A DNA stretch of 64,000 bases from Escherichia coli (lineage in GTDB: Bacteria; Pseudomonadota; Gammaproteobacteria; Enterobacterales; Enterobacteriaceae): assembly GCF_003334765.1 (NCBI RefSeq), contig NZ_QOWT01000005.1, one strand, 5' to 3'. The translations under genes were made by a program, and so were the position numbers. The notes under the pieces are model-generated. The model did no database searches. It was not told where the DNA came from and was given only the letters and a program-made list of their open reading frames with translations. Position 1 is the stretch's first letter. Every line of letters begins with the position of its first letter. Of this stretch, positions 7,385 to 19,214 are shown one piece after another.

Positions 7385-8077
7385 CTAGTGATAACCACGC
7401 GCGGTCATAAAATCCGTAATCGCTTTTTCTGCATCAATCAGCACCTTTTCCAGTGGCTGATTAGCATCGATATCAACCAGTTGTGCACCACCAAAGGTTA
7501 ACTGTGGCGTTATGGCTATCTTTCTTGCCAGCGATTCCCTTTTGTGGTCAGGCTTACGCGCGCAGGCCACGTCTAGATCGACATTGAGTTTGATGACCAG
7601 ATCAGGTTTATGGCTCGCCATCCAGTGAAACGCTTTACGTTCCTGGCTTGCCAGCCATGAGACAAAACGACCACCTTCAATGTTAGGTGGGAACACTGTA
7701 CCATCGTAAGCGCCAGGAATTTGGTCCTGAGGATAACGGTCGGTTAGAACAATTAACCCGCGACGACGACAGGCAAGCATATGACGAAAGCGCAGTAAGC
7801 GACGGGCGACAAACGCTGTAATTACCAGCGCCGGAACAGGGCCAGGCAATTTTTTTGCTGTTTTCACCTGATTTCGTTCAATTGTTTTATGTAAGGATTT
7901 TCCCATGAACGGTAATTTTGTCACTGCACGACCGACATTTCCGGCCTGTTTTCCTAAATGAACTCTTTCGGCAGCACCATATTTTTCGACAACGGTAATG
8001 AGATGTTCACACACCGTTGACTTGCCTGAACCATCGCTACCAATAACGGCAATTAATGGAGGTGTTATTGACTGCAT
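7385..8077 (-). CDS. yghT: P-loop NTPase/kinase-like protein (230 aa), paralogue 1
   Basis: Walker [10 protein letters not shown], plus DRYPQ and ARKPDH motifs shared with the next two genes. Position matches yghT. Confidence 0.85.
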
Positions 8078-8250
8078 GAATATATCCTTTAATTTAAATA
8101 TCCATTAAAAATATTTATTTGGTTAATATGTTTTTATGAAAGCGTAATTCAGGTCAATGTCACAATTAACCATTGTCACAATAAGGTTGAACGGATATTC
8201 TGAGCACGGACCACGTAATATTCAATACATTATTTGCTGCCGGGTTTTTC
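8078..8250. promoter_or_regulatory. AT-rich divergent promoter region yghT / yghS
   Basis: 173-bp AT-rich spacer between divergent start codons. No sites were mapped. Confidence 0.35.
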
Positions 8251-8964
8251 GTGAATCAACGTAATATGTCAATAATTAATTCCACGCCAGTGCGTGTTAT
8301 TGCCATTGTAGGATGTGATGGTTCAGGTAAATCGACCCTCACGGCAAGCCTGGTAAATGAACTGGCAGCAACAATGCCAACAGAACACATTTATCTCGGG
8401 CAATCGTCCGGGCGAATTGGCGAATGGATTTCACAGCTCCCTGTTATTGGCGCACCTTTTGGGCGTTATCTGCGAAGTAAAGCGGCACATGTGCACGAAA
8501 AGCCCTCCACACCGCCTGGCAATATGACTGCGCTGGTTATCTATCTGCTTTCCTGCTGGCGGGCGTACAAGTTTCACAAAATGTTGTGTAAAAACCAGCA
8601 AGGCTATCTGCTCATCACCGACCGCTACCCGCAGGTTGAAGTGCCGGGTTTCCGCTTTGATGGCCCGCAATTGGCAAAAACCACGGGCGGTAACGGTTGG
8701 ATAAAAATGTTAAGGCAGCGCGAGCTGAAGCTGTACCAATGGATGGCGTCTTATTTGCCCGTATTGTTGATTCGTCTTGGCATTGATGAACAAACCGCGT
8801 TTGCGCGTAAACCTGACCACCAACTGGCAGCGTTACAGGAAAAAATCGCCGTTACGCCGCAACTGACATTCAATGGCGCAAAGATCCTTGAACTGGATGG
8901 TCGGCAACCAGCCGATGAAATTCTGCAAGCGTCACTACGCGCAATTCACGCTGCGCTTTCCTGA
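8251..8964 (+). CDS. yghS: P-loop NTPase/kinase-like protein (237 aa), paralogue 2
   Basis: GTG start. Contains GCDGSGKST, DRYPQ and ARKPDH motifs. Confidence 0.85.
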   Translation: MNQRNMSIINSTPVRVIAIVGCDGSGKSTLTASLVNELAATMPTEHIYLGQSSGRIGEWISQLPVIGAPFGRYLRSKAAHVHEKPSTPPGNMTALVIYLLSCWRAYKFHKMLCKNQQGYLLITDRYPQVEVPGFRFDGPQLAKTTGGNGWIKMLRQRELKLYQWMASYLPVLLIRLGIDEQTAFARKPDHQLAALQEKIAVTPQLTFNGAKILELDGRQPADEILQASLRAIHAALS

Positions 8965-8995: not shown

Positions 8996-9754
8996 ATGGA
9001 CGCACTACAAACACAAACTGTTAATAGTACAACCGCGCCGCAGCCCAACTACATTCCGGGGCTGATTGCGGTGGTCGGGTGTGATGGCACCGGTAAATCC
9101 ACACTGACCAATGACCTGGTGAAATCGCTGCAACAACACTGGCAAACCGAGCGGCGCTATCTGGGGCTGCTCTCCGGCGAAGACGGCGACAAAATCAAAC
9201 GATTGCCGTTGGTTGGTGTCTGGCTCGAACGGCGACTGGCGGCCAAATCCTCGAAAACCCAAAGCATGAAAACCAAATCTCCGGCGCTATGGGCGGCGGT
9301 GATTATGTACTGCTTCTCGCTGCGAAGAATGGCGAATCTACGCAAGGTTCAGCGACTGGCGCAAAGTGGCGTTCTGGTGGTCAGCGATCGCTTCCCGCAG
9401 GCTGAAATTTCGGGCTTTTATTATGACGGACCGGGGATCGGCGTCGAACGTGCGACCGGGAAAATCAGCATGTTTCTGGCGCAGCGCGAACGGCGTTTAT
9501 ACCAAAAAATGGCGCAATACCGTCCTGAATTAATTATTCGTTTGGGGATTGATATTGATACTGCCATCTCCCGCAAGCCTGACCATGACTATGCCGAGCT
9601 GCAGGACAAAATCGGCGTCATGTCGACGATTGGCTATAACGGCACAAAAATTCTTGAGATTGATTCCAGAGCGCCCTACAGCGAAGTGCTGGAACAGGCA
9701 CAGAAGGCGGTTTCTCTGGTTGCCATCGTTTCTGACCGCCGAAGTTTAACTTAA
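8996..9754 (+). CDS. yghR: P-loop NTPase/kinase-like protein (252 aa), paralogue 3
   Basis: Contains GCDGTGKST, DRFPQ and SRKPDH motifs. Lies 31 nt after yghS. Confidence 0.85.
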   Translation: MDALQTQTVNSTTAPQPNYIPGLIAVVGCDGTGKSTLTNDLVKSLQQHWQTERRYLGLLSGEDGDKIKRLPLVGVWLERRLAAKSSKTQSMKTKSPALWAAVIMYCFSLRRMANLRKVQRLAQSGVLVVSDRFPQAEISGFYYDGPGIGVERATGKISMFLAQRERRLYQKMAQYRPELIIRLGIDIDTAISRKPDHDYAELQDKIGVMSTIGYNGTKILEIDSRAPYSEVLEQAQKAVSLVAIVSDRRSLT

Positions 9755-9799: not shown

Positions 9800-11149
9800 T
9801 TGGCGGGTTTTAACATCAAACATTGGTTTGCAGATGGCGCGTTTCGCACCATTATTCGCAATAGCGCCTGGTTAGGCTCCAGTAATGTCGTGAGCGCTTT
9901 ACTGGGTCTGTTGGCGCTCTCGTGTGCCGGTAAAGGGATGACGCCCGCCATGTTTGGCGTACTGGTGATTGTACAATCGTACGCCAAGTCGATCAGCGAT
10001 TTTATTAAGTTTCAGGCATGGCAGCTGGTGGTTCAGTACGGAACACCAGCATTAACCAACAATAATCCGCAGCAATTCCGCAATGTCGTCTCATTTTCCT
10101 TCTCGCTGGATATCGTCAGCGGCGCGGTGGCGATTGTCGGCGGCATTGCCTTACTCCCTTTTCTTTCCCATTCATTAGGTCTGGATGACCAAAGCTTTTG
10201 GCTGGCAGCGCTGTATTGCACGCTCATTCCTTCAATGGCTTCCTCCACGCCGACCGGCATTCTGCGTGCGGTAGATCGCTTCGATCTAATTGCTGTACAG
10301 CAAGCGACGAAACCTTTTCTGCGCGCAGCGGGGAGCGTCGTAGCCTGGTATTTTGACTTTGGTTTTGCGGGTTTTGTTATTGCCTGGTACGTGTCGAATC
10401 TGGTTGGCGGCACCATGTACTGGTGGTTTGCCGCGCGCGAATTACGCCGCAGAAATATCCATAACGCCTTCAAATTGAATCTGTTTGAGTCTGCCCGACA
10501 CATTAAAGGCGCGTGGAGTTTTGTCTGGTCAACCAACATTGCCCACTCCATCTGGTCGGCGCGTAACTCGTGCAGCACAGTGCTGGTGGGGATCGTGTTA
10601 GGACCCGCTGCCGCCGGGTTATTTAAAATCGCCATGACATTCTTCGACGCCGCCGGAACGCCAGCGGGTTTACTGGGCAAAAGTTTTTACCCAGAGGTGA
10701 TGCGTTTAGATCCGCGCACCACCAGACCGTGGTTGTTAGGCGTGAAGTCAGGTTTACTGGCGGGCGGAATCGGTATTCTGGTGGCGCTCGCGGTGTTGAT
10801 CGTCGGCAAGCCGCTTATTTCGCTGGTGTTTGGCGTTAAGTATCTCGAAGCGTATGACCTGATTCAGGTGATGCTGGGCGCAATTGTGATTTCGATGCTG
10901 GGCTTCCCACAGGAGTCATTGCTATTGATGGCGGGAAAACAGCGCGCTTTTCTCGTGGCGCAAACCATCGCCTCAATCGGCTACATCGTATTGCTGTTCA
11001 TGTTCTGTCATCTGTTTGGCGTGCTGGGAGCAGCGTTTGCTTATTTCGGTGGGCAATGTCTGGATGTGGTGCTCTCGTTAATTCCGACCTTAAAGGCATT
11101 TTTTCAGCGCCATTCCTTGCTTTATAACGCAGCCGGAGAGAAATCCTGA
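9800..11149 (+). CDS. yghQ: MOP-superfamily (Wzx/MurJ-like) polytopic membrane flippase, full length (449 aa with TTG start; start uncertain)
   Basis: Highly hydrophobic multi-TM protein. Position after yghR matches yghQ. It is longer than the K-12 product as I recall it. Confidence 0.75.
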   Translation: MAGFNIKHWFADGAFRTIIRNSAWLGSSNVVSALLGLLALSCAGKGMTPAMFGVLVIVQSYAKSISDFIKFQAWQLVVQYGTPALTNNNPQQFRNVVSFSFSLDIVSGAVAIVGGIALLPFLSHSLGLDDQSFWLAALYCTLIPSMASSTPTGILRAVDRFDLIAVQQATKPFLRAAGSVVAWYFDFGFAGFVIAWYVSNLVGGTMYWWFAARELRRRNIHNAFKLNLFESARHIKGAWSFVWSTNIAHSIWSARNSCSTVLVGIVLGPAAAGLFKIAMTFFDAAGTPAGLLGKSFYPEVMRLDPRTTRPWLLGVKSGLLAGGIGILVALAVLIVGKPLISLVFGVKYLEAYDLIQVMLGAIVISMLGFPQESLLLMAGKQRAFLVAQTIASIGYIVLLFMFCHLFGVLGAAFAYFGGQCLDVVLSLIPTLKAFFQRHSLLYNAAGEKS

Positions 11150-11973
11150 TGATGAGAAAATATTTCCCGCTTGAGGCGAGCGAGCGTCTATTTGTTGCAG
11201 TTGAAGAAGATGATGTCGTTGATGCACAGGTCAGTTTGCCGCCGACTATCGCACTAAGTTGTACCACCGAAATCATCCATGATAATTACGCGTTATGCCT
11301 GCAATTCTGGCTCAATGGCGTCAATCGCCAGGAGTTACTGCGTTTAATATGCAAACAGGCCAAAGGCGATGAGTTGACTGCTGATGAGCGCAAACAATTT
11401 AAATACATGCGAGCGCGCTACAAGCACCTGCGTTTTGCGCAACGGCTGTATTTAAAGAAGCATCAGGCCGGATTTTTATTCGGCAAAACGACCGTTTTTT
11501 TGGGGCGTTTTCAGGACGGTTTTCGTAACGGTAAGAAAAATATTGTGTCGTATTACGGCAACTTGTTACGGGTTTATTTAAGCTCTCCGGTCTGGTCGTT
11601 GGTGAACTATTCATTACGCCATAGCCAGTTAGAAAGCGTAAGCGGTTTTATTGCCTATCGGCAAAAGCAAATGCATACCCTGAAAGAGATAATTGCCAAA
11701 CCGCGACTAACCGGCAGGGAATTTCATGATGTGCGAAAAATCATCAGCCAGCAGGTTTCTTATTACGACACCTTAAGATCGCTTGATCCTGAAAATAAAG
11801 AGGCGTTACAGATTTCCCGCTTCCTCGCCGCCATTAATGGCCTGATGGGGGATAAACACGACGACATGGTGGCGGATGATATGGAAAACCGCCAGTCGTA
11901 TGATGCACCGGTGGCGCTGGATAGCGATATTCGCCAGCGCTTAGAGCTGCTGATTTCGCGTTTTCCGCTATAA
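11149..11973 (+). CDS. hypothetical soluble protein (274 aa), no recognisable family
   Basis: The ATG overlaps the yghQ stop (TGATG), suggesting translational coupling. Codon usage looks typical. I recognise no motifs. Confidence 0.6.
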   Translation: MMRKYFPLEASERLFVAVEEDDVVDAQVSLPPTIALSCTTEIIHDNYALCLQFWLNGVNRQELLRLICKQAKGDELTADERKQFKYMRARYKHLRFAQRLYLKKHQAGFLFGKTTVFLGRFQDGFRNGKKNIVSYYGNLLRVYLSSPVWSLVNYSLRHSQLESVSGFIAYRQKQMHTLKEIIAKPRLTGREFHDVRKIISQQVSYYDTLRSLDPENKEALQISRFLAAINGLMGDKHDDMVADDMENRQSYDAPVALDSDIRQRLELLISRFPL

Positions 11974-11981
11974 CCGGAGCA

Positions 11982-12545
11982 ATGATGTCATCTCGTTTGA
12001 TTATTGCGCTGATTATCATGCTCTTAGCCCAGGGTGTGCAGGCACACAATTTCGTCACTGGCAAAACGGTTACCCCCGTTTATATCCAGGAAGGCGGCGA
12101 GCTGCTTCTGAATAGCGACGACGAAATTCACTACCAAAAGTGGAACAGCACACAGCTGGCGGGAAAAGTCCGCATTATCCAGTATATCGCCGGGCGTAAG
12201 TCGGCGAAGAAAAAGAACTCACTGTTAATTAAAGCGGTTGAAGCGGCAAACTTTCCGCAGGATCGTTTTCAGCCCACCACCATTGTGAACACCGATGATG
12301 CCATCTTTGGTACTGGCTATTTTGTCGTTGGCAAAATCGAAAAAAATAAACGCCGCTATCCGTGGGCGCAATTCGTTATTGACGGCAATGGACTGGGACG
12401 CGTTGCCTGGCGGTTGCCGGAGCAGAGTTCAACCATTCTGGTGCTGAATAAAGACGGGCAAATTCAGTGGGCAAAGGACGGCAGCCTGACGCCGGAAGAG
12501 GTAGATCATGTCATTGCGCTGGCGCAGAAACTGATCAATGAATAA
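11982..12545 (+). CDS. YtfJ-family periplasmic protein (187 aa) with signal peptide
   Basis: Signal peptide MMSSRLIIALIIMLLAQGVQA|HN. Long collinear similarity to E. coli YtfJ as I recall it (WNS.QL.GKVR..Q.IAGR.SAK, TTIVNTDDAI, DKDG..QWAKDG.LTPEEV). GGAG SD 5 nt upstream. Confidence 0.8.
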   Translation: MMSSRLIIALIIMLLAQGVQAHNFVTGKTVTPVYIQEGGELLLNSDDEIHYQKWNSTQLAGKVRIIQYIAGRKSAKKKNSLLIKAVEAANFPQDRFQPTTIVNTDDAIFGTGYFVVGKIEKNKRRYPWAQFVIDGNGLGRVAWRLPEQSSTILVLNKDGQIQWAKDGSLTPEEVDHVIALAQKLINE

Positions 12546-12575
12546 AAAATTCAAAGGATTGAGGGTGTTAGTGAG

Positions 12576-13646
12576 ATGAAGCTGGTTGAACACTACATCA
12601 TGCGTGGTACGCGCCGTCTGGTGCTGATTATCGTCGGTTTTCTGATCTTTATTTTCGCCAGCTACTCCGCACAGCGTTATCTGACCGAAGCGGCAAATGG
12701 GACCTTAGCTCTTGATGTTGTGCTGGATATCGTTTTCTACAAAGTGCTGATTGCACTGGAGATGTTGTTACCTGTTGGTCTGTATGTGTCAGTTGGCGTG
12801 ACGCTAGGGCAGATGTATACCGACTCGGAAATTACCGCTATCTCTGCGGCGGGGGGCAGTCCGGGACGCTTGTACAAAGCCGTTCTTTATCTGGCGATAC
12901 CGCTAAGTATTTTTGTCACCCTTCTGTCGATGTATGGTCGGCCGTGGGCTTATGCGCAGATTTATCAACTGGAGCAACAGTCGCAGTCGGAGCTGGATGT
13001 TCGCCAGTTGCGGGCAAAGAAATTTAACACTAACGATAACGGACGAATGATCCTTTCGCAGACGGTTGATCAGGATAATAATCGCCTGACTGACGCGCTG
13101 ATTTATACTTCTACTGCCAATCGAACCCGCATTTTCCGCGCCCGTTCGGTTGATGTGGTTGACCCATCACCTGAGAAACCGACCGTTATGTTGCATAACG
13201 GGACCGCCTATCTTCTCGATCATCAGGGGCGTGACGACAACGAACAGATCTACCGTAATCTGCAATTACATCTGAATCCGCTGGATCAAAGCCCTAACGT
13301 CAAACGCAAAGCAAAATCGGTCACGGAGCTGGCGCGCTCCGCCTTTCCTGCCGATCATGCCGAACTGCAATGGCGACAAAGCCGTGGCCTGACAGCATTG
13401 TTGATGGCGCTGCTGGCCATTTCATTAAGTCGGGTAAAACCGCGGCAAGGGCGATTTTCAACGTTATTGCCACTGACGTTGCTGTTTGTTGCCATTTTTT
13501 ATGGCGGCGACGTCTGCCGTACGCTGGTGGCTAACGGTGCGATTCCCCTCATTCCTGGTTTGTGGTTAGTACCCGGACTCATGCTAATGGGCCTGCTGAT
13601 GCTGGTCGCACGCGACTTCTCTTTGCTGCAGAAATTTTCCCGATGA
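12576..13646 (+). CDS. LptF-like permease (YjgP/YjgQ family, 356 aa)
   Basis: Collinear with E. coli LptF: LGQMYTDSEITAISAAG vs LGKLYTESEITVMHACG, and AELQWRQS...SLSRVKPRQGRFSTLLP vs AELNWRIT...PLSVVNPRQGRVLSMLP. Confidence 0.85.
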   Translation: MKLVEHYIMRGTRRLVLIIVGFLIFIFASYSAQRYLTEAANGTLALDVVLDIVFYKVLIALEMLLPVGLYVSVGVTLGQMYTDSEITAISAAGGSPGRLYKAVLYLAIPLSIFVTLLSMYGRPWAYAQIYQLEQQSQSELDVRQLRAKKFNTNDNGRMILSQTVDQDNNRLTDALIYTSTANRTRIFRARSVDVVDPSPEKPTVMLHNGTAYLLDHQGRDDNEQIYRNLQLHLNPLDQSPNVKRKAKSVTELARSAFPADHAELQWRQSRGLTALLMALLAISLSRVKPRQGRFSTLLPLTLLFVAIFYGGDVCRTLVANGAIPLIPGLWLVPGLMLMGLLMLVARDFSLLQKFSR

Positions 13647-14722
13647 ATGTTTTCAGTCGCTATTTAATCCGTCATCTCTTTCTCGGTTTTGCCGCCGCCG
13701 CAGGGCTATTGCTGCCGCTTTTTACCACCTTCAACCTGATTAACGAACTGGATGATGTCAGCCCGGGCGGTTATCGCTGGACTCAGGCGGTGCTGGTGGT
13801 GCTGATGACCTTACCGCGTACACTGGTCGAACTTTCGCCGTTTATCGCATTATTGGGAGGGATTGTTGGCCTGGGGCAGTTATCGAAAAACAGTGAGCTT
13901 ACCGCCATTCGCAGCACTGGGTTTTCTATCTTCCGTATTGCACTGGTGGCGCTGGTTGCCGGGATATTGTGGACTGTTTCGTTAGGCGCGATAGATGAGT
14001 GGGTGGCGTCGCCATTGCAGCAACAGGCGCTGCAAATCAAATCGACTGCCACCGCGTTGGGGGAGGACGATGACATTACCGGCAATATGCTTTGGGCCAG
14101 GCGCGGTAATGAATTTGTGACGGTGAAATCGCTGAACGAGCAGGGCCAGCCTGTGGGCGTGGAGATATTTCATTATCGCGACGATCTCTCGCTCGAATCC
14201 TACATTTTTGCACGCAGTGCCTCCATTGAAGACGACAAAACGTGGATCCTGCATGGTGTGAATCATAAAAAATGGTTGAATGGCAAAGAAACGCTGGAAA
14301 CATCAGATAATCTTGCCTGGCAATCGGCCTTCACCAGTATGGATCTTGAAGAGTTATCGATGCCGGGGAATACTTTTTCTGTCCGTCAGCTTAATCATTA
14401 CATCCATTATTTGCAGGAAACCGGACAACCCAGCAGCGAATACCGCCTTGCACTGTGGGAAAAACTGGGGCAACCGATCCTGACCCTGGCGATGATTTTG
14501 CTGGCTGTGCCGTTCACCTTTAGCGCCCCGCGCTCGCCAGGGATGGGTAGCCGTCTCGCTGTAGGCGTCATCGTTGGCTTACTCACCTGGATCAGCTATC
14601 AAATCATGGTCAATCTGGGGTTGCTATTTGCGTTGAGTGCACCTGTTACCGCGCTCGGTTTACCGGTAGCGTTTGTGCTGATGGCGTTGAGCCTGGTGTA
14701 TTGGTATGACAGACAACATTAA
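13643..14722 (+). CDS. LptG-like permease (YjgP/YjgQ family, 359 aa)
   Basis: ATGA overlap with the preceding gene. KNSELTAIRSTGFS resembles the LptG coupling-helix QRSELVVMQASGF. The ORF-track upstream extension is rejected. Confidence 0.85.
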   Translation: MNVFSRYLIRHLFLGFAAAAGLLLPLFTTFNLINELDDVSPGGYRWTQAVLVVLMTLPRTLVELSPFIALLGGIVGLGQLSKNSELTAIRSTGFSIFRIALVALVAGILWTVSLGAIDEWVASPLQQQALQIKSTATALGEDDDITGNMLWARRGNEFVTVKSLNEQGQPVGVEIFHYRDDLSLESYIFARSASIEDDKTWILHGVNHKKWLNGKETLETSDNLAWQSAFTSMDLEELSMPGNTFSVRQLNHYIHYLQETGQPSSEYRLALWEKLGQPILTLAMILLAVPFTFSAPRSPGMGSRLAVGVIVGLLTWISYQIMVNLGLLFALSAPVTALGLPVAFVLMALSLVYWYDRQH

Positions 14723-14723
14723 A

Positions 14724-14750
14724 CCCGCCGTGGCGCAACACCACGGCGGG
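14724..14750. terminator. bidirectional terminator hairpin between convergent operons
   Basis: Perfect 10-bp GC stem cccgccgtgg / ccacggcggg with a 7-nt loop, placed exactly between the stops at 14722 (+) and 14757 (-). Confidence 0.75.
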
Positions 14751-14756
14751 CTCACA

Positions 14757-15929
14757 TTACTGCTTCAGAGTAGCAAATGCCTGAATGATGGCATCGATTT
14801 GCTCATGACTGTGGGCAGCGTTTACGCTACAGCGCAGCAGAGTGATGCCTGCAGGCGCGGCAGGTGGCAGGATAAGATTCACATAAACGCCCAGCGAAAT
14901 AAGCTCGCGCCAGATGCGTAAACCGTCCTCTTTCGAACCGATTATTACCGGCACTACCGGGCTAATATGTGAACTTAACTCATAACCCAGTTTTTGCAGA
15001 CCGTCATACAGATGGTTGGCGTTATCCATCAGCTTTTGCCGCAGCTCTGGTTGTGAGGCAATGGTTCTTAACGACGAGCGCACGGTCGCAATGCAGGACG
15101 GAGAAGGAGAGGCGGTAAAAATATACGGGCGGCTGCCGTAGCGCAACACTTCCATCGCTTCCGAACCGACAGCAAAACCGCCAATCGAGGCCAGACTTTT
15201 ACTGAAAGTACCAACGATAATATCCACATCATCTTCAACGCCAACGGCTTCAGCCAGTCCGCGCCCCGTTGCGCCTAACACGCCAAACGAATGCGCTTCA
15301 TCGACAATCAAATAACCACCGAGACGACGTTTGATATCAACAATTTCCGCTAACGGCGCAACGTCACCGAGCATGCTGTAGATGCCCTCAACGATGATAA
15401 TCGCCTCTTTCGCCCGTTCACCGAGGCGAACCATGCGCCGTTCCAGATCTTTAGCATCGTTATGGCGGAAACGAATAATTTCCGCGCCACCGAGAGAACA
15501 GGCGTCATAAATACTGGCGTGGCTGTCGGCATCCAGTAACACCACGGCGTTATGGTCGGCAAGTGCGCTGATGACGCCTAAATTAGCGGTATAACCGGTT
15601 GAAAAAACGATAGCGGTAGGGCGATTGAAAAACTCGGCAATCTCTTTCTCTAACGCCAGGTGCGGCGCATAACTGCCGTTTGCCATACGAGAACCGGTGG
15701 TGCCGGTGCCTTGGGCCGCTAACGCTGCCTGACCTTCGGCGATGGCATCATGATTAAAGGTTAAACCGAGATAATTATTGGTCCCGGCCAGAATCACTTT
15801 TTTATTGCCGATCCGACCTTCGGTGGCGGAATACACTTCATCAATACAGGTGCCAAACGGTGTTAACCCGTTGTCACTAAATTGCAGTCGCTCGCCAGCA
15901 AGGCGCGCATATTTATCGTATAGCCCCAT
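14757..15929 (-). CDS. PLP-dependent alpha-oxoamine synthase, serine-palmitoyltransferase-like (390 aa)
   Basis: VDEAHSFGVLGATGRG and GTFSKSLASIGGF (PLP lysine) are hallmark AOS-family strings. As I recall them, they are closest to bacterial Spt. Confidence 0.85.
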   Translation of the reverse strand: MGLYDKYARLAGERLQFSDNGLTPFGTCIDEVYSATEGRIGNKKVILAGTNNYLGLTFNHDAIAEGQAALAAQGTGTTGSRMANGSYAPHLALEKEIAEFFNRPTAIVFSTGYTANLGVISALADHNAVVLLDADSHASIYDACSLGGAEIIRFRHNDAKDLERRMVRLGERAKEAIIIVEGIYSMLGDVAPLAEIVDIKRRLGGYLIVDEAHSFGVLGATGRGLAEAVGVEDDVDIIVGTFSKSLASIGGFAVGSEAMEVLRYGSRPYIFTASPSPSCIATVRSSLRTIASQPELRQKLMDNANHLYDGLQKLGYELSSHISPVVPVIIGSKEDGLRIWRELISLGVYVNLILPPAAPAGITLLRCSVNAAHSHEQIDAIIQAFATLKQ

Positions 15930-16177
15930 TATTTATTCTCCAGCCATGGAAGTAGAGTTTCCATTAATTGCGCAGGGGTTTTGACATCCAGCAGAATATT
16001 AATAGGAATGGAAATATCGAATCTGTCTTCCAGCATCATTAAGAGATCCATCACTTTGATCGACTCCAGGCCAAGATCGTTGACGAGATCGCTGTCGGGC
16101 TTAATTTCCACACCGTTTTCGACCAAATCCTGTAAACAGGAAAGGATGTAATCCATTACTATTTCACGATTTACCAT
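15929..16177 (-). CDS. acyl carrier protein (82 aa)
   Basis: DLGLESIKVMDLLMMLEDRF is a phosphopantetheine-attachment motif. Its stop overlaps the downstream start (TAATG). Confidence 0.85.
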   Translation of the reverse strand: MVNREIVMDYILSCLQDLVENGVEIKPDSDLVNDLGLESIKVMDLLMMLEDRFDISIPINILLDVKTPAQLMETLLPWLENK

Positions 16178-16208
16178 AGAAACGTTAACACACCTTTAAA
16201 CAAGACAA

Positions 16209-17123
16209 TCAAAATAGCCCGTTGCGTAATGCGTGTTCCAGGCTAATCCCGGGAAACCAATTAATATCTTCAGAAATACGGTTATTACTTGCCGACCAGT
16301 CGGCATGGGTTAATTCACGGATTTTCGAACGAGTCAGCATCGGTTCTTTACCCGCCAGACGGCTCAACGCGGTACTGATATCCGCAAGGCAGGTGAGTAG
16401 CGGCAGAGGAATACCGACCATCCGCACGGAACCACAGCGGACATCGGCAACAAGCTGTTGGACACGTTGCCAGTCATAGCCTCCGGCGACGCCATCGCAT
16501 AATTCATAGGTTTGCGTCTGTACAGTTTCGGCGCTTAACCACTGACCCACTGCTTGCGCAAAATCGGTGACGTGCAGGAAAGAGAGCTGTGTCTCTGGCG
16601 TGCCAAGTCGTGGCAGCAGACCGCGCAGCATCCAGTCAAACAGCGGTTTTAACTCTTTATCGCCGGGACCATACACGGCTGTCGGGCGAAAAACGCCCAA
16701 CGTAATTTCGTCAGCCATTGCAGTCAGCCGTTGTTCGGCGACGTGTTTGGAATTTGCGTACCAGGAGAGTTCGGGATGGCGCGCCGCCAGCGAAGAGATA
16801 AACAGAAAACGTTGGCAAAAGCCGCTCTCTTTTGCCGTTTGCATCAGGCGCAGGCTGCCGTCAACGTTGCAGCGGGTAAAAATCTCTTCTTTGTGCCCGC
16901 GCACTTGCCCGGCGCAATGGACCACCGCGCTGGCTCCGGTAACCAGTTCGCTAAGCGAATGTGTATCTTCCAGCGAACCGCGCACCCAAGTGAGATTATC
17001 ATTGACGTGAGCGCGGGCAGTACGCGTCAATGCGCGAACGTGAAAGCCGCGGGCGAGCAGGTTATCAATAATATATTTACCGATAAACCCGGTAGCGCCC
17101 GTCACCGCGACAGTTTGATTCAT
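16209..17123 (-). CDS. NAD(P)-dependent epimerase/dehydratase-family (extended SDR) reductase (304 aa)
   Basis: Rossmann motif VTGATGFIGKYI and catalytic YANSK (YxxxK). Confidence 0.85.
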   Translation of the reverse strand: MNQTVAVTGATGFIGKYIIDNLLARGFHVRALTRTARAHVNDNLTWVRGSLEDTHSLSELVTGASAVVHCAGQVRGHKEEIFTRCNVDGSLRLMQTAKESGFCQRFLFISSLAARHPELSWYANSKHVAEQRLTAMADEITLGVFRPTAVYGPGDKELKPLFDWMLRGLLPRLGTPETQLSFLHVTDFAQAVGQWLSAETVQTQTYELCDGVAGGYDWQRVQQLVADVRCGSVRMVGIPLPLLTCLADISTALSRLAGKEPMLTRSKIRELTHADWSASNNRISEDINWFPGISLEHALRNGLF

Positions 17124-18844
17124 GCCAGGGACTCCTGCACATGAAGACTGGCAGCATAAGCCTTCTGATAACGTTTTTTCGCTTCCGCACGGGCAGGCTT
17201 GCCGGAGGATGTTCGGGGAATACTGTGGGGCGGCAACAGATCGATATCCGCGGTAACGCCAAATTCGCTTTGGATCCGTGCTGCCAGCGCGTGGATAAGC
17301 TGCCCGCGACGTTCTTCATCGCTGATCCGACACTGGATCTGCAAAATGATTTTTTCTTGGGCGGTAACAAAAGCAATCGCATCGCCAGAATGAATTTCCG
17401 GTTCCTGTTCCGCAATATATTCAATATCCTGCGGCCAGATATTACGGCCACGAATAATAATCAGATCTTTAATGCGTCCGGTGACATACAGATAACCGTC
17501 CAGCAGATAACCGAGGTCGCCGGTGTCTAACCAGCCCGTCGCGGCAATCTCGTCTTGTGAAATCTGGTCGCCAAAGTAACCGCTCATCAGGCTAGGGCCG
17601 GAGATGCAAATATGGCCTACCACACGTTCCGCGACAGGTATACCTGCTTCATTGCGGATTTCAATGCCATGTTCCGGCAACGCTTTACCGCAGTTGACGA
17701 AAGTCGATACGGCGCGTGTTTCAGCATCCGGCGCGACGGCTTTGCCCTGATATTCGAGGATGTCGCGATCCACTTCGTTAACCACAACCCCGGAAGCTTC
17801 ATCAGAGAAGCTGACAGCCAGCGCATTTTCTGCCAGTCCGTAGCACGGCATGAAAGTTTTATCGTCAAAGTTGACCTGACGGAAACATTCAGCGAATTGA
17901 TGGAGTTGTTCTGCGGAGATGGGTTCTGCACCAATACCAGCGACGCGCCAGCAGGAAAGATCCAGTTCAGCGAGATCTTTTTCATTCACGCGGCGCTGGC
18001 ACAATTCATAGCCAAACGGCGGCGCAACGGAAACGGTGCCGCGATTTTTACTGATCAATTTAAGCCATTGCAGAGGACGCATGGCAAAATCCTGAGTGCG
18101 CAAATAATCTACTGAGAGTTGCGTGGCGACGGGGGTCAGGAGAAAGCCGACCAGTCCCATATCATGGTAGAAAGGCAGCCAGGAGACGCAGCGGTCGCCA
18201 GGGCGTAATTTTATGCCATCGTGGCTTATAGCACGTAGATTAGCCATCACTTCGCGATGGGTGATAATGACGCCACGGGGAAAACGGGTGCTGCCGGAGG
18301 TGTACTGGAGGTAGGCGATATCGTTCGGAACTGGACGCTGGAGCGCAACATCGGCTTCCGGTAATGCCTTAAACCAGGCGTGGCTTAAAACATGTAATTC
18401 GGGGTTGTTGTTATGCGTCGCGGCATTGACCAGTGGCAACCACTCATCACCAGTGATAATGGCTGCGGGCTGGCAACTTGCCAGTAAACCCTGCAGCTTG
18501 CCGCTCCAGGAATCCCGCTGACCGACGCCCATGGGAATCGCCAACGGGACGGCGACTAAGCCGGCATACTGGCAGGCAAAAAAAGCCTCTACGAACCCGC
18601 TACTGGTTTCGGCAATCAGTGCCACGCGATCGCCTTTTTTCAGGTTTAGCGATAACAACCGCTTCGCACCAGCTTCGGCACGCGCTTTTAACGTCTGATA
18701 TTCCAGTTGATCTTCAAGTTGGCAACGTCTGTCATAAAAATTCATTCCAGCGCTACTCAGAGCGGCATAGTCCAAAGCATCAACCAGCGTTGGAAAATCG
18801 GCATAGCGCATAGGTAGGGAATGCGTAAAGATTTTATTAGACAT
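17120..18844 (-). CDS. fatty acyl-AMP ligase / acyl-ACP synthetase-type adenylating enzyme (574 aa from ATG 18844; TTG alternative at 18871)
   Basis: AMP-binding core LQYTSGSTRFPRGV and GRIKDLIIIRGRNIWPQDIE. ATGA overlap with the SDR gene. Confidence 0.85.
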   Translation of the reverse strand: MSNKIFTHSLPMRYADFPTLVDALDYAALSSAGMNFYDRRCQLEDQLEYQTLKARAEAGAKRLLSLNLKKGDRVALIAETSSGFVEAFFACQYAGLVAVPLAIPMGVGQRDSWSGKLQGLLASCQPAAIITGDEWLPLVNAATHNNNPELHVLSHAWFKALPEADVALQRPVPNDIAYLQYTSGSTRFPRGVIITHREVMANLRAISHDGIKLRPGDRCVSWLPFYHDMGLVGFLLTPVATQLSVDYLRTQDFAMRPLQWLKLISKNRGTVSVAPPFGYELCQRRVNEKDLAELDLSCWRVAGIGAEPISAEQLHQFAECFRQVNFDDKTFMPCYGLAENALAVSFSDEASGVVVNEVDRDILEYQGKAVAPDAETRAVSTFVNCGKALPEHGIEIRNEAGIPVAERVVGHICISGPSLMSGYFGDQISQDEIAATGWLDTGDLGYLLDGYLYVTGRIKDLIIIRGRNIWPQDIEYIAEQEPEIHSGDAIAFVTAQEKIILQIQCRISDEERRGQLIHALAARIQSEFGVTADIDLLPPHSIPRTSSGKPARAEAKKRYQKAYAASLHVQESLA

Positions 18845-19214
18845 ATACACCACGAAAAAATTGGATATCAAAAATAAAATGACAATAATGCGGTGGATTA
18901 TATAGGCATAAAAGATAAATGAGATAGTATTTTCATCAGTGTGAAAATGAACATTGATTTAAATAATGAATTTGAGTTTTTTGTTTTTATTGTGAATGAT
19001 ATTTAATTTATGAATATATTAAGAAGGAGCCTTGTCCGGTCGCCTTAAATCGACAAAAGGCATTGTGGCGCTTCTGTGTAGTCTCTGACCTTATCGTAAT
19101 CATTAATAAATACTATTTATTCGTCGTTTGTATTCATTGGGTTGATTATTAAGGTGCCGTTCGTTGCTGTTGCAACCTGTTTGTCACCGTTAATTATTTG
19201 TTACCCACAGAACT
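18845..19214. promoter_or_regulatory. AT-rich divergent promoter region (lipid operon / yghO)
   Basis: 370-bp strongly AT-rich spacer between divergent starts. No sites were mapped. Confidence 0.4.

Follow-up and report, generated by a model that had tools for sequence, protein, structure and literature searches.

The gene pair

Within a 64,000-nucleotide (nt) stretch of Escherichia coli DNA (contig NZ_QOWT01000005.1; this whole stretch is called the window below), yghQ, a gene for a putative lipid flippase, runs directly into a gene for a 274-residue protein. We describe here this pair, the kinase genes that accompany it and the sphingolipid cluster in which it lies, and we argue that the 274-residue protein is probably a very divergent CHAD-type domain, encoded as part of a conserved unit with the flippase and the kinases. 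The pair itself comprises three features:

9800-11149, + strand: yghQ, putative lipid flippase of MOP/Wzx type (Polysacc_synt), 449 residues, TTG start; Pfam PF01943 and PF13440 above cut-offs.
11147-11151, + strand: TGATG stop/start overlap leading from yghQ into the CHAD-like gene, read in the sequence.
11149-11973, + strand: probable divergent CHAD-fold gene with a soluble, basic 274-residue product; open reading frame and RefSeq coding sequence.

The junction reads ...GAGAAATCC TGATG ATG AGA..., with the TGA of yghQ at 11147-11149 and the ATG of the downstream gene at 11149-11151, an overlap of 1 nt; a second ATG follows at 11152, and a GGAG lies about 10 nt 5' of the first. RefSeq annotates the same two coding sequences in E. 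coli PF9285, in which the 2174-nt pair (9800-11973) is 100% identical, as 'lipopolysaccharide biosynthesis protein' (yghQ) and 'hypothetical protein' (WP_000985005). The TTG start of yghQ is credible because the N-terminal residues KHWF.DG.FR.I.RN are kept as far as Novosphingobium. We assign YghQ to the Wzx-type MOP family because it exceeds the gathering scores of both Polysacc_synt (PF01943, 41.6 bits against a cut-off of 28.2) and Polysacc_synt_3 (PF13440, 31.9 bits against 23); it also matches the NCBIfam 'MOP flippase family' weakly over its full length, and a crude hydropathy scan finds at least eight strongly hydrophobic segments (KD19 of at least 1.25) plus weaker ones, where MOP flippases of this type have 12-14 transmembrane helices. 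Identity between the E. coli and Sphingomonadales versions is 49-57%. The 274-residue protein lacks any hydrophobic segment, KD19 peaking at 0.82; its pI is 9.2, and the charged residues K, R, H, D and E make up 29% of it.

Of 5426 complete E. coli genomes, 4134 (~76%) have yghQ and its neighbor together, counted at 80% or more coverage of the gene pair. Pairwise omega of the 274-residue gene against other Escherichia lineages is 0.06-0.10, at an unsaturated synonymous divergence (dS) of 0.3-0.7, and is comparable to that of the neighboring yghR, yghS and lptF paralog. A word-indexed search returned 344 relatives, and an exhaustive profile search of 1.84 billion proteins (E <=1e-3) returned 307 representatives of the family, whose conservation extends through Xanthomonadales and Sphingomonadales as well as Enterobacterales, with orthologs down to 39% identity. 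The open reading frame is a real gene under strong purifying selection.

Coupling to yghQ and co-occurrence across species

A scan at one genome per species gave 80 loci with relatives 39-97% identical, drawn from Enterobacterales, Xanthomonadales (Luteibacter, Rhodanobacter, Dyella), Carnimonas and Sphingomonadales. All proteins of the window were compared with these loci by tblastn, and 79 of them extend far enough to be informative. In 74 of these 79, which represent three orders, the gene immediately upstream is a yghQ ortholog in the same orientation. The distance from stop to start in these 74 loci is -4 in 45, -1 in 13, -8 or -11 in five, 0 in six and +1 to +13 in five; the yghQ stop and the downstream start thus overlap in 63, and no gap is longer than 13 nt. 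The overlap is no chance feature.

Two or three YghR/S/T-type kinase genes accompany the pair almost everywhere. In Sphingomonadales, yghQ and the CHAD-like gene form a free-standing unit with two or three kinase genes; the loci there are high in GC, and open reading frame calls are too noisy for naming the flanking genes. The unit is joined to aasR-cerR-acpR-spt in Xanthomonadales, and ytfJ-like and lptF/G-like genes are added to it in Enterobacterales. All lineages with the module make or encode sphingolipids, and in three of the four the module lies among ceramide genes. Kinases, flippase and CHAD-like protein form a conserved functional unit in these sphingolipid-making or sphingolipid-encoding lineages. 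In the reverse direction, a metagenome scan with a YghQ alignment returned near-identical E. coli contigs only; look-ups of the loci of distant family representatives met contigs mostly too short to inform, and around P0229 and P0184 no clear link to a pathway emerged.

Some loci depart from the common arrangement. In Carnimonas (L060 and L063, 8500-14500) the CHAD-like gene directly follows spt, beside yghO and three kinase paralogs; no yghQ homolog was detected within the 20-kb locus, and the LptF/G homologs nearby are distant (27% identity). Luteibacter carries two tandem CHAD-like genes after yghQ (L041, 10001-11757; L047, 9152-10816), and a metagenomic protein of 564 residues (P0122) is a tandem fusion of two CHAD-like domains.

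An earlier sequence-only reading of this DNA had described a full-length MOP flippase of 449 residues, a TGATG overlap at 11147-11151, translational coupling of yghQ to the gene behind it and a soluble, charge-rich product. The Pfam scores bear out the first of these, the K-12-type yghQ being C-terminally truncated by contrast; the overlap is there in the sequence; coupling is supported by the 63 of 74 other loci that also overlap; and the product, with 29% charged residues, indeed has no hydrophobic segment. The same reading had staked the gene on conservation and purifying selection, which it shows, and had proposed the co-occurrence analysis with yghQ that yielded adjacency in 74 of 79 loci.

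Fold and family of the 274-residue protein

An AlphaFold2 model of the 274-residue protein, built with 24 homologs, is all-alpha (pLDDT 91.9, pTM 0.89). When the model was compared with 48,164 chains, three CHAD entries took the top three places with a clear gap, aligning over 186-210 residues, and Foldseek against the PDB gave probabilities of 0.96 for 6qv5, 0.87 for 3e0s and 0.69 for ygiF. The predicted fold has the two four-helix bundles with pseudo-twofold symmetry by which CHAD domains are recognized. Relatives of the protein make the connection at the level of sequence. Among 52 diverse full-length family members, 13 match Pfam CHAD (PF05235) at E <=0.1 (best 3.4e-7), and every other Pfam family turns up in at most two of the 52. 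P0158, a single-domain protein of 279 residues (E 2.6e-48 to the family profile), reaches 27.6 bits with the CHAD model inside the homologous segment, above the gathering score of 25.6 bits; P0184 (40.9 bits) and P0218 (30.7 bits) also exceed it, within or overlapping the homologous region. CHAD membership of the E. coli protein is by transitive homology only, the Pfam membership test itself having failed, and because of that failure we term it a divergent CHAD variant and not a plain member. We are fairly confident of its identity as a CHAD-type domain, one so divergent that present sequence models are at, or past, the limit of what they can detect.

The conserved residues of the family follow a pattern that recurs in each half of the protein, in which a basic helix precedes an (L/M)Gxx(Q/H)D motif:

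K85/R88/K92-H93/R95 ... L118-G119..Q122-D123: first-half motif of the 274-residue protein.
H193/R196-K197 ... M233-G234..H237-D238: second-half motif.

R88, K92, G119, D123, H193, R196, G234, H237 and D238 are invariant across the family, and K85, R95 and K197 nearly so. The two halves of the protein align weakly with each other, exactly in the register of the motif repeats (E 0.014). As judged from these residues, the repeats appear to match the two-bundle pseudo-symmetry of CHAD and resemble its His/Arg motif for contacting polyphosphate, H-x2-R-x3-R being the polyphosphate-contact residues of CtCHAD and SsCHAD (PMC6537752). CHAD domains bind phosphate chains from tripolyphosphate upward, and many CHAD proteins are encoded beside polyphosphate enzymes (PMC6537752).

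Two further observations concern the family at large. Profiles of the family (A1 and A2) matched coronavirus spike constructs among PDB sequences, a spurious hit that rests on 'GKLQD'. A distant branch (P0192, P0195, P0199-P0209, P0222, P0225, P0229, P0235) has signal-peptide-like N-terminal leaders, and its CHAD-like domain may be periplasmic or secreted.

The sphingolipid cluster around the pair

Downstream of the pair, and converging on it from the opposite strand, lie genes of sphingolipid synthesis and of a putative export route:

11982-12545, + strand: YtfJ-family protein with a hydrophobic N-terminal leader, probably periplasmic (Pfam YtfJ_HI0045, E 1.6e-59; NCBIfam TIGR01626).
12576-13646, + strand: LptF paralog, second copy (Pfam LptF_LptG, E 2.3e-54).
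13643-14722, + strand: LptG paralog, second copy, its start overlapping the lptF-like stop (Pfam LptF_LptG, E 1.1e-68; RefSeq).
14720-14754: hairpin with a 16-bp stem (10 G-C pairs), terminator-like on the - strand; pattern match only.
14757-15929, - strand: spt, serine palmitoyltransferase (RefSeq; Pfam Aminotran_1_2).
15929-16177, - strand: acpR, specialized acyl carrier protein (RefSeq; PMC9386255).
16209-17123, - strand: cerR-like reductase of the NAD-dependent epimerase/dehydratase family (RefSeq; Pfam Epimerase; PMC9386255).
17120-18844, - strand: aasR, acyl-AcpR synthetase, annotated as fatty acyl-AMP ligase (RefSeq; Pfam AMP-binding; PMC9386255).
19215-20357, + strand: yghO, candidate N-acyltransferase (ceramide synthase, cerS) (RefSeq; PMC9386255).

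The full gene order is pitB; yghT on the opposite strand; yghS-yghR-yghQ-(274 residues)-ytfJ-like-lptF-like-lptG-like on the + strand; convergent spt-acpR-cerR-aasR; and yghO. The + strand run from yghS to the lptG-like gene has gaps of at most 45 nt and two overlaps. The ytfJ-like gene is found in Enterobacterales versions of the cluster only. The hairpin sits exactly between the lptG-like and the convergent spt stop codons and is the strongest terminator-like site of the region. The genes spt, acpR, aasR, cerR and cerS are encoded together, four of the five with Pfam matches; yghO is the exception, with none at E <=0.01. No LptB-like ATPase or LptC-like gene lies alongside the LptF and LptG paralogs of the E. 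coli locus.

Part of this pathway has been characterized. The corresponding genes of E. coli BL21(DE3) are ECD_02850-02854; formation of 3-oxo-sphinganine by their Spt, AcpR and AasR products has been demonstrated, with the spt ortholog ECD_02854 active, and the reductase together with YghO (ECD_02850, N-acyltransferase) was proposed to finish ceramide synthesis (PMC9386255). For export, Caulobacter CC_1166 (Polysacc_synt) and second copies of LptC, LptF and LptG have been proposed as a sphingolipid route (PMC11324152); a 2024 Caulobacter study considered the flippases and transporters of bacterial sphingolipids not yet identified (PMC11087976).

Kinase paralogs

Upstream of yghQ are three P-loop kinase paralogs and a possible promoter:

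7385-8077, - strand: yghT, kinase paralog of thymidylate-kinase fold, divergent from yghS.
8173-8201: promoter-like site, consensus match only.
8251-8964, + strand: yghS, second kinase paralog, probably the first gene of the + strand operon (motifs, profile).
8996-9754, + strand: yghR, third kinase paralog (motifs, profile).

The Walker A motif GxDGxGKS/T and the motifs DR(Y/F)PQ and ARKPDH are invariant in YghR, YghS and YghT, and the family profile finds thymidylate kinases (dTMPK) in the PDB at E 5e-6. The composition of the unit recalls PPK3 of Sulfolobus, a polyphosphate kinase made of two exapted thymidylate-kinase paralogs (saci_2019/2020) and encoded in an operon with a CHAD protein (saci_2021) (PMC12995831); 5h70 is a homolog of its catalytic subunit (PMC12995831). 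The parallel in kinase/CHAD composition is striking. Independent support for a link between kinases and CHAD-like domains comes from P0229 and P0235 (~980 residues), in which a kinase of APH/choline-kinase type is fused to a CHAD-like domain and a further canonical CHAD segment.

All three E. coli kinases share, at residues ~40-100, an insert that thymidylate kinases do not have, LG..SG..G..I..LP.(I/M)G followed by a hydrophobic Arg-rich helix; residues 55-75 of YghT, within it, have an AlphaFold2 pLDDT below 50. The insert could be a membrane- or substrate-binding element. A ceramide kinase of CpgB type was considered for YghR/S/T and rejected, CpgB being of LCB5/DAG-kinase type and different from P-loop kinases.

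The locus in K-12-type genomes and Shigella

In K-12-type genomes the alignment to the gene pair stops at about nt 1065-1069 of yghQ, with IS5 next, and RefSeq flags the C-terminus of this yghQ as missing:

Window 10865-19215 equivalent (L166, 3501-5730): segment absent from K-12-type genomes, IS5 following yghQ nt ~1065.

These genomes have none of the CHAD-like gene, the ytfJ-like gene, the lptF/G paralogs, spt, acpR, cerR and aasR; yghO is retained. The yghQ of the K-12 literature, for example in chlorhexidine adaptation (PMC8170033), is therefore a truncated remnant. In our literature search, work on yghQ, yghO and yghRST was limited to this truncated K-12 allele (chlorhexidine adaptation and a silkworm screen), and none concerned the 274-residue protein. 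In Shigella flexneri SFBU1023 (L002, 10834-19150) yghQ (99% identical) and the CHAD-like gene (97%) are both intact, and the stretch from the ytfJ-like gene through yghO gives fragmented multi-frame tblastn matches without N runs, a fragmentation that could be gene decay or assembly indel errors.

Proposed mechanism and alternatives

The sequence-only reading had called the 274-residue protein an orphan of no recognizable family. That description does not hold, as fold comparison puts the protein with CHAD domains and several relatives match Pfam CHAD; the further suggestion of a genuinely unannotated family is weakened on the ground that the reading had itself set, assignment to a known family. 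CHAD is not unrelated to the lipid-locus context, because CHAD binds phosphate chains. The broader setting it had proposed, a lipid-synthesis and Lpt-like locus, is supported by Pfam and RefSeq as a ceramide cluster with LptF and LptG paralogs, and its idea that a lipid bearing a head group is moved across the inner membrane agrees with the published Caulobacter proposal (PMC11324152). That the 274-residue protein may act as an accessory or specificity factor is plausible.

We hypothesize that the 274-residue protein works in the cytoplasm with the kinases and YghQ, binding phosphate chains and acting on a phosphorylated sphingolipid head group, an explanation that we hold tentatively and at somewhat less than even confidence. 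Its starting point is a protein with two predicted helical bundles and conserved basic and His residues, a fixed partner of YghQ and YghR/S/T in a module attached to ceramide synthesis. First, the kinases would phosphorylate the head group of ceramide, possibly repeatedly, or would consume or produce an oligo- or polyphosphate donor. On the cytoplasmic side of the inner membrane, the CHAD-like protein would then bind the phosphate chain and either hold it there or present it to YghQ, which would flip the anionic lipid; in Enterobacterales, the YtfJ-like protein and the LptF/G paralogs would move the lipid on to the outer membrane. We infer these steps, and with them phosphate binding by the 274-residue protein, its contact with YghQ, the substrates of the kinases and the identity of the lipid, from the binding of phosphate chains by CHAD domains, the lipid-linked diphosphate carried by canonical MOP flippases and the anionic phospho-sphingolipids that Caulobacter makes and exports to its outer membrane.

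A number of results weigh against this hypothesis and the CHAD assignment on which it depends. The 274-residue protein has no Pfam match at E <=1, the CHAD model included, and no NCBIfam match; the A1 and A2 profiles matched no CHAD chain among PDB sequences; and hhalign of A2 with the CHAD domain of E. coli YgiF, a short CHAD, gave a probability of 0.1. The fold assignment rests on a predicted structure, for which the Foldseek E-values are non-significant (0.19) and the TM-score to the CHAD entries is ~0.43. An obligate complex with YghQ is uncertain because Carnimonas keeps the CHAD-like gene, three kinases and ceramide genes with no adjacent yghQ, and two loci carry the CHAD-like gene alone. 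YghR/S/T do not resemble PPK3 more closely than they resemble ordinary thymidylate kinases, and ppx, sixA and ppk genes are not in the locus, which leaves the link to polyphosphate metabolism as one by analogy. Lastly, no E. coli sphingolipid with a phosphate-rich head group was reported in the literature searched.

Among the alternatives, the one that survives best, though we consider it unlikely, is that the 274-residue protein serves YghQ in a structural or assembly role (for instance as a cytoplasmic cap, stabilizer or gate) and is built on a CHAD-like scaffold that has lost phosphate binding, with gene coupling merely securing 1:1 production. The conserved adjacency and stop/start overlap would fit such a role, as would the extreme divergence from canonical CHAD, to the point that no direct sequence match is left, and the low TM-score. 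It accounts less well for the family-wide invariant residues, which are mainly basic, His and Asp in two CHAD-type repeats and do not form a hydrophobic interface, for the persistence of the protein with kinases where yghQ is not adjacent, and for the fusion of CHAD-like domains to an unrelated type of kinase as well.

Somewhat less probable still is a bacterial polyphosphate system resembling PPK3, in which the CHAD-like protein tethers the polymer, the sphingolipid genes are mere neighbors, and YghQ exports, or is regulated by, something other than a sphingolipid. The pairing of adjacent kinase paralogs with a CHAD-like protein is what speaks for it. Against it stand the lack of ppx and sixA in the locus and the retention of catalytic motifs by all three paralogs, with no obvious split into catalytic and regulatory subunits; similarity of the kinase profile to a homolog of the PPK3 catalytic subunit (cPPK3) is confined to the P-loop (2plr, E 0.025). 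Furthermore, every lineage with the module makes or encodes sphingolipids, ceramide genes surround the module in three of the four, and E. coli already has PPK1.

We give a similarly low probability to the view that the 274-residue protein belongs to an unrelated, new helical family whose likeness to CHAD is a convergent bundle geometry, in which case CHAD would not predict its function. The failed direct searches and the low TM-score are what such a family would be expected to show, but the CHAD entries stand first, second and third of 48,164 chains with a clear gap, members linked to the query at E 1e-48 or better pass the CHAD gathering score in the homologous segment, and CHAD is the sole Pfam family to recur among members. 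The last possibility, that the frame is not a gene and its overlap with yghQ is chance, has nothing for it beyond the RefSeq label 'hypothetical protein', is already refuted by the conservation data (omega 0.06-0.10, and orthologs to 39% identity at an equivalent position in three orders) and by a confident fold prediction, and retains next to no probability.

A more specific form of the proposed phosphate-chain mechanism is improbable: carriers of the cluster (most E. coli other than K-12, many other Enterobacterales, and some Xanthomonadales and Sphingomonadales) might use an oligo- or polyphosphate chain as the head group of a sphingolipid that they make. The kinases would build the chain on ceramide by PPK3-like chemistry with a lipid primer, the CHAD-type protein would hold it, the MOP flippase would flip the lipid, and the second LptFG of enterobacteria would send it to the outer membrane.

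Significance

The idea of a flippase within a sphingolipid cluster is already known from Caulobacter, and the ceramide genes of the E. coli locus are partly characterized. Recognition of the 274-residue 'hypothetical' protein as a divergent CHAD-type domain, its near-universal coupling to yghQ over three orders, and the likening of the kinase/CHAD pairing at this locus to PPK3 were each absent from the literature searched. Bacterial sphingolipids are now known to be widespread, with head groups outside Caulobacter, Bacteroidota and Sphingomonas largely uncharacterized. About three in four complete E. coli genomes have the locus, that of BL21(DE3) among them, but it is deleted in K-12, which is probably why it has been overlooked. 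The CHAD assignment, if true, would tie a CHAD domain to a membrane lipid pathway, a setting not described in the CHAD literature searched, and the recognition of a 'hypothetical protein' as CHAD-type opens cheap, concrete experiments. Should the protein prove to be a structural partner only, the annotation of a conserved family with 307 representatives would still be useful.

Comparison with known systems

Canonical Wzx/MurJ-type MOP flippases carry a lipid-linked diphosphate, a cargo that fits a phosphate-rich head group. YghQ is like them in exceeding the Polysacc_synt and Polysacc_synt_3 cut-offs; unlike in their systems, no glycosyltransferase, Wzy or Wzz genes lie nearby in the E. coli locus, and the likely lipid of YghQ is a ceramide derivative and not an undecaprenyl-PP-glycan. 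We are not aware of any other MOP flippase for which a dedicated CHAD-type partner has been described, and the literature searched yielded none.

The nearest whole-cluster counterpart is Caulobacter crescentus CC_1152-CC_1168, with the head-group enzymes CpgABC, the putative flippase CC_1166 and LptC2/F2/G2. Both clusters have spt-acpR-aasR-cerR-cerS, a MOP protein (a likeness at the level of the Polysacc_synt Pfam family) and a second LptF/LptG, and the Caulobacter MOP protein with LptF2/LptG2 has been proposed to export anionic phosphosphingolipids (PMC11324152). The head-group genes differ, in that the Caulobacter ceramide kinase CpgB is of LCB5/DAG-kinase type whereas the E. coli locus has kinases of dTMPK fold and a CHAD-like protein; no CHAD protein is described in the Caulobacter cluster, and LptC2 is not seen in the E. 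coli locus.

Set beside CHAD proteins (PF05235; 6QV5 RcCHAD, 3E0S CtCHAD, 6RN5 PptA, 5A60 YgiF), the 274-residue protein is similarly all-alpha as predicted, of about the ~280 residues of the 'long' type, and has two repeats of a basic helix followed by an LGxxxD-type motif; its best structural matches are CHAD, and its gene stands beside P-loop kinases much as CHAD genes stand beside polyphosphate enzymes. It differs in that neither the Pfam model nor any solved CHAD is matched directly by the sequence of the E. coli protein, whose TM-score is ~0.43, and in that its gene is fixed to a flippase gene and a lipid pathway and not to CYTH, PPX or PPK genes.

With the PPK3 system the locus shares adjacent paralogs of the dTMPK superfamily encoded together with a CHAD or CHAD-like protein. 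It departs from that system in a sequence similarity to cPPK3 that covers the P-loop only and does not place its kinases in the PPK3 clade, in the lack of a ppx/sixA/phosphate-gene neighborhood, in the retention of catalytic motifs by all of its paralogs, and in the presence of a MOP flippase and ceramide genes. If our assignment is right, the pairing of dTMPK paralogs with CHAD, shown so far for archaeal PPK3 only, would extend to common bacteria.

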